From a virus (lineage: Duplodnaviria; Heunggongvirae; Uroviricota; Caudoviricetes): DNA of 28,746 nucleotides. Positions 5,712 through 27,534 of the stretch are shown piece by piece. Both the position numbers and the translations under genes were made by a program. The DNA is taken from positions 1-28,746 of IMG/VR virus record IMGVR_UViG_2713896907_000002. One strand, written 5' to 3'. The notes under the pieces were generated by a model that was not told the origin of the DNA, searched no databases, and worked only from the letters and a program-made list of their open reading frames with translations. The stretch's first letter is position 1. Each line of letters starts with the position of its first letter.

Positions 5712-5726
5712 TTACCTTTCAGGTAA
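5712..5726. promoter_or_regulatory. TTACC-N5-GGTAA palindrome (perfect)
   Basis: TTACC TTTCA GGTAA in the divergent intergenic region between the tailspike start (5603, minus) and the 85-aa gene (5803, plus). Identical 15-mer to the site at 24453-24467. A TGTATAAAT extended -10-like element lies at about 5767-5775. Confidence 0.5.
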
Positions 5727-5802
5727 TTTGCATGCCGTGCTGGATAGCAAATAAATCATCTGCTACTGTATAAATATATAGTTATTGCATGGAGAAGATA
5801 AG

Positions 5803-6060
5803 ATGCAGCAGTATCACTATCCACTGGAAGACGGATTTACCGAAAGGATTCACACGCCGGGAGGCGTCAGGTCACTGGTGGAGGGATCGCACTTGATGAA
5901 ATTACTCCGGGATCTCGATAAGGATGGATTTAATGTCGATGGCCCACTTGCCGAACTGACTGCACTGATTAACTACGTCACCAGCTCACAGATGTCTATG
6001 CGGGATCTGCAAACACATCTCGACTATTGTGCCGAACAATTACGAAAACAAACCAGATAA
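5803..6060 (+). CDS. Small protein (85 aa) paralogous to the C-terminal domain of the adjacent antirepressor
   Basis: Track ORF starts at TTG 5785; the ATG at 5803 follows GGAGAAG with a 5-nt spacer. Residues LMKLLRDLDKDGFNVDGPLAELTALINYV...MRDLQTHLDYCAEQ align by eye with LMNLLNQLQEDGHDVSGAAAELTTMFCYI...LRDIQMHAEYINDK of the 231-aa protein, roughly 40 percent identity over about 50 residues. Confidence 0.6.
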   Translation: MQQYHYPLEDGFTERIHTPGGVRSLVEGSHLMKLLRDLDKDGFNVDGPLAELTALINYVTSSQMSMRDLQTHLDYCAEQLRKQTR

Positions 6061-6091
6061 GGTTTGTAATTACCAAATGGAGTGCTTATAT

Positions 6092-6106
6092 TTACCTTTG
6101 CGGTAA
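6092..6106. promoter_or_regulatory. TTACC-N5-GGTAA palindrome (perfect)
   Basis: TTACC TTTGC GGTAA about 30 nt downstream of the 85-aa gene stop and upstream of the structured leader preceding the antirepressor gene. Confidence 0.45.
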
Positions 6107-6133
6107 ATTTACATCGCACTCCTCTTGTGCCAT

Positions 6134-6185
6134 AGTAATCGGGCACTGGCAAAATCCAGTGCCGGGATTGGCGTCCCGGATTACT
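6134..6185 (+). ncRNA. Structured RNA element candidate (multi-stem fold) in the antirepressor leader
   Basis: Outer stem AGTAATC (6134-6140) / GATTACT (6179-6185) enclosing a hairpin GGCACTGG-CAAAAT-CCAGTGCC and an alternative hairpin CCGGGA-TTGGCG-TCCCGG. No ORF of note overlaps on either strand. Confidence 0.3.
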
Positions 6186-6198
6186 AAAAGGCGCATTC

Positions 6199-6218
6199 AC
6201 CGCACAAGCGGTTTTTTT
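6199..6218 (+). terminator. Rho-independent terminator candidate (short stem plus T7 run)
   Basis: ACCGC-ACAA-GCGGT stem-loop followed by TTTTTTT (6212-6218), between the 85-aa gene and the antirepressor gene. Confidence 0.4.
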
Positions 6219-6317
6219 ATGCGTATAGCACGGCCACATTCGTATTATGGTGGGCTGTGTGGGGGCACCGAAAGGTGCGCCGGGTCCTTTTAGCCGGTTA
6301 CGCCAACCCTGCACAGT

Positions 6318-6350
6318 TCACCACCAACCGATTGGCGTCGGTAGTGGTGA
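6318..6350 (+). promoter_or_regulatory. Hairpin immediately upstream of the antirepressor ribosome-binding site
   Basis: TCACCA (6318-6323) pairs with TGGTGA (6345-6350), enclosing CCGA-TTGGCG-TCGG. It shares the 10-nt GATTGGCGTC (6330-6339) with the upstream hairpin at 6166-6175. Lies about 12 nt before the AAGG Shine-Dalgarno of the ATG at 6376. Confidence 0.35.
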
Positions 6351-6375
6351 TTAACCAGACTAAAAGGTAACCACT

Positions 6376-7071
6376 ATGACAGCTACAAAAAGCACGTCCA
6401 TTTTTTCTTTCGAATCCCAAGCCGATATACGAGTAATCGTCATTAATGGTGAGCCATGGTTTATCGCTTCAGATGTTTGTCGGGCTATAGGCATAGCAAA
6501 CCATCGAGATGCTGTTCGAAAACTTGATGATGATGAGAAGGGCGTCGCTTCAACCGACACCCCTGGCGGTGAGCAAGAATCGATCATCATCTCCGAGTCA
6601 GGCCTCTACACACTGATCCTCCGCTGCCGCGATGCGGTGACACCAGGCACTATCCCCTACCGCTTTCGTAAATGGGTTACAGGTGAGGTACTTCCTCAGA
6701 TCCGCCGCACCGGAAGCTACATTAAAAACTCGCTCCCGCAGGAAGAACGGATAAAGATGGTTGCCGACCAGGTAGCCAACGCCACGGCGTCAGCAGTGAT
6801 GCAGGCAATGAAGATAGAGAACAAAACCTACAGTGCCCCGCTGAAGCCCGGATACCGCAGCCTGATTCATTCTCCGTCTGGTGTTCTCGGCCTGACTGAG
6901 AACTCACTTCTGATGAATCTGCTGAACCAGTTACAGGAAGACGGGCACGACGTATCTGGCGCGGCGGCGGAGCTGACCACCATGTTCTGCTACATCGTCG
7001 GTGTGAGCAAATGCCTGCGTGATATCCAGATGCACGCGGAGTACATAAACGACAAGGCAGGGTTCTTCTGA
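6376..7071 (+). CDS. Antirepressor-like protein with N-terminal Bro-N domain, 231 aa
   Basis: ATG start. The N-terminus (FSFESQADIRVIVINGEPWFIASDVCRAIGIANHRDAVRKL) matches the Bro-N / phage antirepressor N-terminal domain pattern. The C-terminal domain is paralogous to the upstream 85-aa protein. Confidence 0.75.
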   Translation: MTATKSTSIFSFESQADIRVIVINGEPWFIASDVCRAIGIANHRDAVRKLDDDEKGVASTDTPGGEQESIIISESGLYTLILRCRDAVTPGTIPYRFRKWVTGEVLPQIRRTGSYIKNSLPQEERIKMVADQVANATASAVMQAMKIENKTYSAPLKPGYRSLIHSPSGVLGLTENSLLMNLLNQLQEDGHDVSGAAAELTTMFCYIVGVSKCLRDIQMHAEYINDKAGFF

Positions 7072-7136: not shown

Positions 7137-7151
7137 TTACCTCACGGGTGA
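7137..7151. promoter_or_regulatory. TTACC-N5-GGTGA near-palindrome (site family member, one mismatch)
   Basis: TTACC TCACG GGTGA about 100 nt upstream of the perfect site at 7238. Confidence 0.3.
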
Positions 7152-7237: not shown

Positions 7238-7252
7238 TTACCCTAATGGTAA
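7238..7252. promoter_or_regulatory. TTACC-N5-GGTAA palindrome (perfect) overlapping the presumed -35 region of the 211-aa gene promoter
   Basis: TTACC CTAAT GGTAA. A TATATATTAT -10-like block (7273-7282) and GAGGTGA Shine-Dalgarno precede the ATG at 7293. The palindrome centre is about 42 nt upstream of a plausible transcription start. Confidence 0.5.
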
Positions 7253-7292: not shown

Positions 7293-7928
7293 ATGCCACA
7301 ACAACTGCTGAATCCGGCAAAGGTAACTGAGGTTTTCGCTCATCTGAACGAAACTCCAGACAACCGCGCCCTGTATTCAGAGTTAGTGAACGGCAACGAT
7401 GTCACATCTGATGTCAAAGGCGTTTCTCTGGCTCCTGGATACCGCGTTGTCCGTGTAGACGATCGTAAGAAAGGCGAGATTCCACAGGCGCACTTTGAAC
7501 TGTCATTGATAAATGACCTCACCGAAGAGGTAGTGTATTACAATCGTGTCATTATCCAGCCTGACAGCTATCTTAACTGCCGTCCTGTCACGCAGATATT
7601 GGTATGGAGAACCCAGAAGCCTAAGCATCGTGCTGTGCTTCATGATTTCGCCGGCATCATCTTCATGAACTACCTCTTGGAACGGTACGATATCATCGTG
7701 TCTGATCGCAACCAGACTCATGAAGGCATGTCGTTCTGGCAGGCTCGCATGTATGACGCACTGGAACTTGGCCTCCACCTCTATGGTTACGACATGATGA
7801 CATGCGAGCTGATAGAGATGAATAACGAGGAAGAGCTTGAGAAAGGTGAAACCTGGTTGTGGGGTGATGCGGAAAACTTCCAAAACAGATTGGCCATAAT
7901 TTCAAAGCATAAGCTGCCAATAAAATAG
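7293..7928 (+). CDS. Hypothetical protein, 211 aa (orphan accessory gene with its own regulatory unit and terminator)
   Basis: ATG start with GAGGTGA Shine-Dalgarno. Soluble-looking protein with no motif I recognise. Followed directly by a strong intrinsic terminator. Confidence 0.7.
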   Translation: MPQQLLNPAKVTEVFAHLNETPDNRALYSELVNGNDVTSDVKGVSLAPGYRVVRVDDRKKGEIPQAHFELSLINDLTEEVVYYNRVIIQPDSYLNCRPVTQILVWRTQKPKHRAVLHDFAGIIFMNYLLERYDIIVSDRNQTHEGMSFWQARMYDALELGLHLYGYDMMTCELIEMNNEEELEKGETWLWGDAENFQNRLAIISKHKLPIK

Positions 7929-7935
7929 TTCTTTA

Positions 7936-7958
7936 AGCCCGCGCTGCGGGCTTTTTTG
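7936..7958 (+). terminator. Rho-independent terminator
   Basis: AGCCCG-CGCTG-CGGGCT stem-loop followed by TTTTTT (7952-7957), 8 nt after the TAG stop of the 211-aa gene. Confidence 0.65.
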
Positions 7959-24452: not shown

Positions 24453-24467
24453 TTACCTTTCAGGTAA
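24453..24467. promoter_or_regulatory. TTACC-N5-GGTAA palindrome (perfect)
   Basis: TTACC TTTCA GGTAA, about 100 nt upstream of the portal-side operon start (minus) and upstream of the tRNA island (plus). A TTGACA hexamer lies at 24431-24436. Confidence 0.5.
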
Positions 24468-24788: not shown

Positions 24789-24865
24789 GTGGCATTAGAT
24801 CAGTTGGACAGAGCAACCGCCTTCTAAGCGGTTGGTCGCAGGTTCGAATCCTGCATGCCGCGCCA
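24789..24865 (+). tRNA. tRNA-Arg (anticodon UCU), phage-encoded, with encoded CCA
   Basis: Manual cloverleaf: acceptor GTGGCAT/ATGCCGC (one G-U pair), D-arm GATC-AGTTGGAC-AGAGC (one A-G mismatch), anticodon stem ACCGC/GCGGT with loop CTTCTAA, T-arm GCAGG-TTCGAAT-CCTGC, discriminator G, then CCA. Closely resembles enterobacterial argU. Confidence 0.8.
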
Positions 24866-26909: not shown

Positions 26910-27502
26910 TGATTACCATCCTGACGTTCTTTGAGTCGCTTCCTGGCTGCCGCTATGCGATCAGCAATTGTCACATTCACATTAACATCCAAGCGTTCTT
27001 TGAATGCGTTGACGTCGACGTGCTTACCAATCAGTTCTAGGTTCTTCACCTTGTCAGGCCATTTAATTTTTTTGAGGATTGTCTCTATCGAGTCCTCGTT
27101 CATGTTCATGATGGTCGATGACAGATCAAAGCCGCTAAGCGTAGTGCGCCATATTTTCGGCCACTCGCGGATTGGCTTAAGGCTCCCATCGTCGTTGAGG
27201 ATATCAATCACGTCCATCTGGTCGATCTCCACCAGGCGCATGAGAACGTAATCAGCACTGACGCGCATTCGTTTGTTGCGCTCCTCCATCAACTCGGCAA
27301 TCCGTTTTTGAATGCGTTCATCGCGCATCATGACACTGGCTTTAACTGCCGCTGTATTTGGGGAGAATCCTGCGTTAATCGCAGCCTGAGTCTGGTTTTC
27401 AGGCGTTTTGATGTATGACTGGCAATAAGCCTCCTGCATTGCTGTGAGCGGCTTAAATTGCGTTGATTTGCGTTTATAGGTTTTAGGTTCAGCAGGCATC
27501 AT
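26906..27502 (-). CDS. Terminase small subunit (about 198 aa from the internal ATG)
   Basis: Track ORF starts at TTG 27580. The first ATG (27502, MMPAEPK...) is preceded by AGGGTGG. The N-terminal extension would translate the palindrome as low-complexity VTITTTVTIT, so the shorter form is preferred. Helix-turn-helix-like region AAINAGFSPNTAAVKASVMM; directly upstream of the large subunit. Confidence 0.65.
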   Translation of the reverse strand: MMPAEPKTYKRKSTQFKPLTAMQEAYCQSYIKTPENQTQAAINAGFSPNTAAVKASVMMRDERIQKRIAELMEERNKRMRVSADYVLMRLVEIDQMDVIDILNDDGSLKPIREWPKIWRTTLSGFDLSSTIMNMNEDSIETILKKIKWPDKVKNLELIGKHVDVNAFKERLDVNVNVTIADRIAAARKRLKERQDGNQ

Positions 27503-27519
27503 AACCACCCTGGTAATTG

Positions 27520-27534
27520 TTACCGTTGTGGTAA
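27520..27534. promoter_or_regulatory. TTACC-N5-GGTAA palindrome (perfect) immediately upstream of the terminase small-subunit start
   Basis: TTACC GTTGT GGTAA, with an extra GGTAA half-site at 27512-27516. Centre is about 25 nt upstream of the ATG at 27502. Confidence 0.45.

Follow-up and report, generated by a model that had tools for sequence, protein, structure and literature searches.

The window analysed here, a stretch of 28,746 nucleotides from virus record IMGVR_UViG_2713896907_000002, belongs to an epsilon15-like (Uetakevirus) podovirus, an Escherichia coli phage or prophage, and carries on its plus strand two antirepressor genes that share one domain, namely a small ant gene of 85 amino acids (aa) at 5803-6060 and a Bro-N::Ant-like gene of 231 aa at 6376-7071. 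On balance, it is rather probable that these genes specify two antirepressors built on the same repressor-binding fold, one of which is gated by the SOS response and the other by an RNA switch of the kind known from immI of phage P1 and from the isrK locus of prophage Gifsy-1. The antirepressor region as a whole is 94-97% identical to the corresponding regions of phages phiV10, TL-2011b and vB_EcoP_ZX5.

According to pairwise BLASTP, residues 2-75 of the 85-aa protein align without gaps to residues 150-223 of the 231-aa protein, with 31 of 74 positions identical (42%, E=1e-15), which gives formal footing to the roughly 40% identity between the small protein and the antirepressor C-terminus that an earlier note on this DNA had claimed. 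In the profile search with PHROG, phrog_450 is matched end to end both by the small protein (E=7e-48) and by residues 148-229 of the large one (E=7e-35). Among PDB sequences, chain 5D50_E is the common match of the two proteins (small, E=1.4e-46; large, E=6.8e-13). The Bro-N part is absent from the small protein and the genes share one orientation, as the note had also said, and the separate regulatory region and Shine-Dalgarno sequence that it ascribed to the small gene are both real and conserved in relatives. Overlooked in that note was that the 316-bp intergenic gap contains two Rfam-level RNA genes, isrK and C4. Because these RNA genes lie between the two antirepressor genes and precede the Bro-N gene in 10 of the 10 loci scanned, even where the cassette is inverted or an insertion separates it from small ant, the two antirepressor genes form separate regulatory units. 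The databases searched were NCBIfam, PHROG, PADLOC, Rfam and the PDB sequences, while Pfam labels had been precomputed on homologue clusters. With NCBIfam, none of the four proteins searched had an informative match, and PADLOC gave no defence-system match for either antirepressor or the cargo genes.

The sole strong PDB sequence match of the 85-aa protein is chain E of 5D50, an 86-aa chain named 'Anti-repressor protein' (residues 2-84 against 3-85), and the annotated ant gene of Salmonella phage SPC32H (SPC32H_020) encodes a product 86.7% identical to the small open reading frame (ORF) in tblastn. In the window, in the phiV10/TL-2011b/ZX5-type phages and in SPC32H, small ant also occupies the same position, divergent from the tailspike gene and adjoining virion-structural genes. 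The 85-aa protein is, as judged from sequence and position, the orthologue of SPC32H Ant, the canonical antirepressor of this phage family, so that the free-standing paralogue does not derive from the Bro-N protein. Of the three functions that the earlier note had offered for the small protein, the competitor and the anti-antirepressor are without support. The remaining one, a second antirepressor, fits best, with the roles reversed, as it is the 85-aa protein that corresponds to the canonical SPC32H Ant (87% identical) and the Bro-N protein that is accessory. A truncated remnant of a Bro-N gene was also considered and rejected: more than 30 phages share a small ORF of this length, the gene has expression signals of its own, and its orthologue is structurally solved and functional. 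RefSeq annotates the gene as a hypothetical protein in the E. coli rows shown, and so do most of the phage records.

In the secondary literature, SPC32H Ant is described as a tetramer that disassembles the Rep repressor, that acts via the C-terminal tetramerisation (CAD) domain of Rep (PMC9986798) and that is synthesised once LexA has been inactivated (PMC7380047). The Rep of ZX5 and phiV10 matches 5D50 chain A (E=4e-42, 42% identity), and the TL-2011b Rep is likewise in this family. The tetramer-interface positions are aromatic in ZX5 and phiV10 as well, Phe187 aligning with Tyr and Phe190 with Phe. The ant gene of SPC32H stands by itself, with a terminator and oppositely oriented membrane-protein and structural genes directly after it; the epsilon15 ant is also stand-alone.

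The small ant gene starts with an ATG at 5803, preceded by a GGAG Shine-Dalgarno sequence at 5791-5794 and by a candidate -35 element, TTGCAT, at 5728-5733. A LexA box, TACTGTATAAATATATAGTT, lies on the plus strand at 5764-5783 with the form CTGT-N8-ATAG, and the upstream region as a whole is conserved with SPC32H, the LexA box too, although in altered form. Base 5779 in this box is T, whereas 13 of 13 related loci have there the conserved C of the CAG half-site (CTGT-N8-ACAG). SPC32N and SPC32H differ at the same base of the box (ACAG to AAAG), and this single SPC32N change is reported by Kim & Ryu (2013) to render Ant constitutive and to drive lytic growth. The small ant of the window may therefore escape LexA control, or else base 5779 may be a sequencing error.

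The Bro-N::Ant-like protein matches phrog_130, annotated Ant, with E=1.6e-62, and several PHROGs named 'anti-repressor Ant' match its N-terminal 138 residues. Precomputed Pfam labels assign family PF02498 (Bro-N) to cluster P0001, which is 99% identical to the protein, and to each of the 120 homologues listed, while the C-terminal third is without any Pfam family among the same 120. It is this third that contains the Ant-like domain, at about residues 148-229 (window 6817-7062), of which residues 150-226 match 5D50_E. In the AlphaFold2 (AF2) model, which has a mean predicted local distance difference test (pLDDT) score of 67, Bro-N is reasonably confident at about residues 5-112 and is followed by a long helix at 122-147. 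In a Foldseek search with the model of 6376-6711, the Bro-N part weakly resembled SKI/Dachshund-homology (winged-helix-like) domains, a likeness that falls short of significance (probability 0.8-0.9, E about 0.14). The protein was also compared with Gifsy-1 AnrP (STM2616) by BLASTP; it shows no similarity, and homology to AnrP was rejected.

Several comparisons identify the Ant-like domain as the constrained module of this protein and Bro-N as the exchangeable one. In 53 of the 120 best homologue clusters, the C-terminal domain retains at least 95% identity while Bro-N falls below 80%, and 18 residues are invariant over both Ant subfamilies from four host genera. Fusions of this domain to N-terminal partners other than Bro-N were seen twice, in a 314-aa protein of TL-2011b and in phrog_1760, whose N-terminal part is AnrP-like. 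The TL-2011b gene (L003, 7280-8221, minus strand) thereby supplies a third Ant-like domain, 88% identical to the fused domain of the window; its N-terminal antirepressor domain belongs to phrog_524/245, and it is convergent with, and lies shortly downstream of, the Bro-N gene.

Evidence on the function of the Bro-N protein comes from ZX5. The annotated anti-repressor gene of this phage (1078-1773) encodes a product whose N part is 100% and C part 98.9% identical to the window protein, and it is taken to be ORF4 of the ZX5 paper, because ORF4 is described there with an N-terminal Bro domain. Overexpression of ORF4 lowered the lysogens from 1e9 to 1e6 per mL (about 1000-fold) and rep mRNA by 75% (PMC9782041).

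The Bro-N gene appears to be controlled by RNA. An isrK promoter-like site, TTTACA-17-CATAGT with a TG extension, lies on the plus strand at 6108-6136, with a start expected near 6143, the first base of isrK, and its -35 and -10 elements are kept in 9 of 10 aligned loci. The isrK-type small RNA (sRNA) itself occupies 6143-6218 on the plus strand (RF01394, 76.9 bits against a cut-off of 50) and ends in an intrinsic terminator found by the terminator scan at 6199-6218. A c4-a1b1 motif (RF03163) at 6130-6182 scores 45.1 bits, just under its cut-off of 46.7. The C4 antisense RNA follows on the same strand at 6243-6328 (RF01695, 77.7 bits against a cut-off of 45), and isrK and C4 are both absent from SPC32H. 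Element a' of C4 (6286-6293, CCUUUUAG) has exact complements in isrK (a1, 6184-6191) and in the leader of the Bro-N gene (a2, 6360-6367), and element b' (6300-6306, ACGCCAA) likewise has exact complements in isrK (b1, 6168-6174) and in the leader (b2, 6332-6338). The leader with the targets b2 and a2 thus spans 6332-6367 on the plus strand, as delimited by complementarity and covariation, and a2, CUAAAAGG, covers the Shine-Dalgarno sequence of the Bro-N gene, its last base lying 9 nt before the ATG.

Covariation was followed over eight loci from Escherichia, Salmonella, Enterobacter and Klebsiella (the window, L004, L005, L006, L009, L012, L015 and L018), among which four variants of the a element and three of the b element occur. 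The b element changes jointly in C4, isrK and the leader at every locus, and the a variants match too, except that two of the isrK a1 copies each have one G-U wobble, as does the leader copy, a2, at two loci, the a2 pairing having been judged by eye. Such three-way covariation is good comparative evidence that the a and b pairings are functional. The element types further suggest several mutually insulated C4 specificities among these prophages, like the heteroimmunity of P1 and P7. Shiga toxin (Stx) phages contain sequences that are about 80% identical to the isrK/C4 part. As for a leader peptide, no icd- or orf45-like leader ORF is conserved in frame or length across nine loci. One candidate, a 37-aa 'ash family protein' (window 6257-6370; ZX5 1779-1892), was rejected because it overlaps C4 and is not conserved elsewhere, and the ZX5 ORF of that name is probably an annotation artefact of the conserved C4 RNA.

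Both promoters are preceded by an operator-like palindrome. The palindrome TTACCTTTCAGGTAA, a putative Rep operator, lies at 5712-5726, one base upstream of the candidate -35 of small ant, and the isrK promoter has a TTACC-N5-GGTAA palindrome at 6092-6106, again one base upstream of the -35 element; over 10 loci, the arms of this second palindrome are invariant and its 5-nt spacer is variable. Two further palindromes of this type stand ahead of the cargo gene, at 7137-7151 (one mismatch) and 7238-7252, and the remaining sites of the window are found at 1942-1956, 2188-2202, 24453-24467, 27502-27516 and 27520-27534. In total, TTACC-N5-GGTAA occurs nine times in the window against 0.58 expected (about 15-fold over-represented), and the ZX5 genome has 14 copies. 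The sites stand at the start of most transcription units, including lysis/oac, both ant units, the cargo ORF and the small terminase subunit gene. In SPC32H, the rep gene has three palindromes on either side, in the interval to the divergent gene and downstream; the ZX5 sites cluster around rep too, and the palindrome upstream of ant is kept in SPC32H, Tyrion and ST11. TTACC-N5-GGTAA is probably the Rep operator, and if so, Rep would command a scattered regulon like that of P1 C1.

These features can be joined into one mechanism. The 85-aa Ant, made from the LexA-box promoter and a tetramer by homology, would bind the C-terminal tetramerisation domain of Rep and split the DNA-bound Rep tetramer into inactive dimers, leading to SOS-dependent induction. 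The Bro-N::Ant-like protein would use its C-terminal Ant paralogue on the same Rep. Its translation would be blocked by C4 pairing with the two leader sites, Shine-Dalgarno sequence included, and the isrK transcript, which holds copies of both C4 target sites, would serve as a decoy that relieves the block. Since both promoters lie one base downstream of a Rep-operator-like palindrome, loss of Rep would raise both antirepressor transcripts, and the resulting positive feedback would presumably lock the lytic decision.

The same RNA architecture might instead serve the time of infection, as in P1 immI. The Bro-N antirepressor would then be made chiefly just after a naive cell is infected, before C4 accumulates, and would bias the phage towards lysis, with little part in prophage induction, a reading to which we give little weight. 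The accompanying proposal that resident C4 in a lysogen silences the copy of a superinfecting phage seems to us unlikely to the same degree. The c4-like architecture of P1 and P7, with targets flanking C4 and one of them over the ribosome-binding site, is consistent with both, as are the several C4 specificity variants, reminiscent of P1/P7 heteroimmunity, and what was scored in the ZX5 experiment was lysogenisation upon infection rather than induction. However, the homologous isrK system of Gifsy-1 drives stationary-phase prophage induction, and a promoter with an operator-like palindrome, as isrK has, suggests that it is derepressed once Rep is lost. An infection-time role differs from the two-input induction scheme in timing only and is compatible with it.

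The distribution of the two genes was surveyed in a collection of 50,697 phage records. The Ant-like domain is present in 34-35 of them and the SPC32H-type Rep in 36, essentially the same set. Both copies are intact in 15 records, among them TL-2011b and HEMP4 with three copies each, and no phage record holds the fused gene without the small one. The cassette is absent from some E. coli, Enterobacter and Klebsiella phages. Whether the presence of the fused gene tracks the Rep type was also considered, and this was rejected, as identical Rep proteins occur with and without it. In bacterial genomes, the two-gene layout recurs in Escherichia and Salmonella, so that Salmonella prophages with both genes do exist, and in a Klebsiella variant the Bro-N gene lies in the opposite orientation. 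The pair was found, at a query coverage of at least 80%, in 237 of 5,426 complete E. coli genomes. One Klebsiella prophage (L019) has kept the fused gene and lost small ant, with an insertion sequence (IS) element in the region that holds the small gene in relatives. In two E. coli prophages (L009 and L010; 4362-4615), small ant is frameshifted, and a two-gene insertion lies between it and the Bro-N cassette.

A different target for the Bro-N::Ant-like protein has to be weighed against this background. The protein might hit the repressor of another co-resident prophage or a host protein, the cassette being a mobile moron beside ant, which we regard as improbable. It is true that the cassette is accessory, has variable cargo and moves as a unit, being inverted or separated by an insertion in some loci, that an identity of about 40% leaves room for altered specificity, and that its isrK/C4 part resembles Stx-phage sequences. 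Antirepressor crosstalk is, moreover, established for the Salmonella prophages Gifsy and Fels (PMC3121763). Against a different target, the fused domain occurs in the phage collection only in genomes with an SPC32H-type Rep and a small Ant, and its divergence follows the phage lineage: compared with Enterobacter, Rep is 78% and the fused domain 77% identical, and compared with Klebsiella, 45% and 52%. In E. coli prophages, whose Rep proteins are 98.5-100% identical, the C-terminal domain is near-invariant while Bro-N is swapped, and ZX5 ORF4 altered the lysogeny of ZX5 itself.

The paralogues themselves are old. Within a genome they are 37-46% identical, while orthologues of the small protein share 60-99% and those of the fused domain 52-99%, and this low paralogue identity beside higher orthologue identity indicates that the duplication or fusion is old and that both copies have been maintained. 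A recent within-genome duplication was rejected for the same reason, as the 37-46% applies in every genome and across four host genera. The Ant family is narrow, with 55 clusters at 50% identity among 1.84 billion representatives, mostly of 80-95 aa, plus a small number of longer fusions. In Klebsiella phages (L004 and L006), the small Ants carry at about residues 40-52 the motif DGHDVSGAAAE, shared with fused domains and unlike other small Ants, which may reflect local gene conversion between paralogues.

Two copies of one fold in the same cell could also meet in mixed oligomers, in which the C-terminal domain of the Bro-N protein would co-assemble with the 85-aa Ant and either poison it, as an anti-antirepressor or threshold setter (the idea of the earlier note, roles exchanged), or lend the Ant-Rep complex a Bro-N-mediated activity; we consider this very unlikely. 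The homology does extend over the whole Ant fold with its 18 family-wide invariant residues, SPC32H Ant works as a homotetramer, the fused gene never occurs without the small gene in phage records, and the Klebsiella small Ants share DGHDVSGAAAE with the fused forms. On the other hand, ZX5 ORF4 overexpression favoured lysis, whereas a protein that poisons Ant should favour lysogeny, the 37-46% identity within genomes together with subfamily-specific C-terminal helices looks more like insulation, and Klebsiella prophage L019 keeps the fused gene without the small one. There is at best a slight chance that mixed tetramers of the paralogues compute the lysis decision as proteins, with DNA damage and the C4/IsrK RNA state as the two inputs and with Bro-N adding a DNA- or host-directed activity. 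To our knowledge, a combinatorial antirepressor of this kind has not been described for any phage.

Several observations weigh against the proposal of two separately gated antirepressors acting on one Rep. The cassette is dispensable, as 16 phage records have the small gene only, namely all 12 Salmonella phages together with PAS61, YDC107_2, BUCT554 and BUCT711. The fused domain is frameshifted in four records, comprising phiV10 (L001, 7184-7446) and O157 typing phages 9 and 10; these phages are temperate and viable and have the same Rep. The C-terminal region of the AF2 model, with three helices at 167-228, is of low confidence (block-mean pLDDT about 41-73), and the Foldseek search of this model against PDB gave no match at E<=0.001. 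The ZX5 experiment used a strongly overexpressed GST (glutathione S-transferase) fusion, and Rep binding was no part of the assay (PMC9782041). Binding of the fused domain to Rep is a prediction from homology, and about 40% identity to Ant allows another partner. The cognate Rep of the window phage is expected outside the window by synteny with ZX5 and SPC32H, its presence being deduced from relatives. Repression of the small ant promoter by Rep, should it occur, might also make LexA cleavage by itself insufficient for induction. Finally, as no icd- or orf45-like leader ORF is conserved, the details of the RNA switch may differ from the P1 and Gifsy-1 models.

Compared with SPC32H, the window carries an extra cassette of about 1.9 kb that consists of the promoter, isrK, C4, the Bro-N::Ant-like gene and cargo. 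The cargo ORF on the plus strand at 7293-7928 encodes a 211-aa protein of phrog_1349 (function unknown), and an intrinsic terminator identified by the terminator scan at 7935-7953, also on the plus strand, closes the cassette. The cargo slot is variable in relatives, where it holds a SocA_Panacea-domain protein, a faintly YafO-toxin-like protein or a P22_AR_N fragment. Elsewhere in the window, a tRNA-Arg gene (anticodon TCT) lies at 24789-24865, between the large terminase subunit gene and the portal-led block of head genes.

The analysis corrects the annotation of this locus, in which the 'hypothetical' 85-aa gene corresponds to a structurally solved antirepressor and the Bro-N protein had passed as the sole antirepressor of ZX5-type phages. 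It also provides the C-terminal domain of a widespread Bro-N family, which has no Pfam entry, with a fold and a likely partner, telling its repressor-binding part apart from its exchangeable module. With one effector fold in two copies wired to two sensors, LexA and C4/IsrK, the locus offers a tractable case for the combination of SOS-dependent and SOS-independent induction. Since these prophages reside in about 4% of complete E. coli genomes, enterohaemorrhagic E. coli (EHEC) included, the way in which they are induced matters for serotype conversion and for the stability of prophages. In the literature, we found no description of the Ant/Bro-N C-terminal paralogy, of the conservation of the pair, of the domain-level mosaicism or of the split between LexA and C4/IsrK control. 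The view of the earlier note that the arrangement is not characterised thus holds for the paralogy and the dual arrangement, on which no paper was found, but not for the parts, as SPC32H Ant-Rep, ZX5 ORF4 and c4/isrK control have each been studied separately.

Among known systems, immI of phage P22 (mnt, arc, ant and sar) is a secondary immunity region in which an antirepressor gene adjoins the tailspike gene and is under antisense-RNA control. It differs from the locus described here in that its proteins and RNA are unrelated and its ant gene is under Mnt and Arc, not LexA or C4.

The immI region of P1 and P7, with c4, icd and ant, is known from the work of Citron and Schuster and of Heinrich. 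Similar to it, the window has a C4-family RNA with target copies a1/b1 on one side and a2/b2 on the other, the downstream target covering the antirepressor's ribosome-binding site, and the elements covary as they do between P1 and P7. Unlike P1 and P7, the window is without a conserved icd-like ORF, its a2 lies on the antirepressor's own Shine-Dalgarno sequence, the product is of the Bro-N::Ant(SPC32H) type, and the phage is a podovirus with an unrelated Rep.

In Gifsy-1, IsrK activates translation of the antirepressor AnrP in trans from the isrK-orf45-anrP locus (Hershko-Shalev et al. 2016, PMC4825925). The order of elements is alike: an isrK sRNA has its own terminator, and transcription that reads through it covers a C4-like region, called STnc1160 in Gifsy-1, and then an antirepressor gene. 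However, AnrP shows no similarity in BLASTP to the Bro-N protein of the window, and its control passes through translation of orf45, an ORF that has no conserved equivalent here.

Phage vB_EcoP_ZX5 has essentially the same Bro-N gene at the same locus with an identical small ORF upstream. The ZX5 paper (PMC9782041) presents ORF4 as the sole antirepressor and the 85-aa gene as hypothetical, leaving the RNA genes and the paralogy unmentioned.

The Rep-Ant pair of SPC32H (PDB 5D50 and 5D4Z; Kim & Ryu 2013, Kim et al. 2016) resembles the locus in its 87% identical Ant of equal length, in the position beside the tailspike gene and in the upstream region, and a homologous Rep is present in relatives of the window. 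SPC32H differs in that it has the small ant only, with a terminator directly after it, whereas the window adds the cassette and the altered LexA box at 5779; the SPC32H Rep and the E. coli-type Rep are, moreover, only 42% identical. Set beside these systems, the arrangement is common in prophages and is built from individually known parts.

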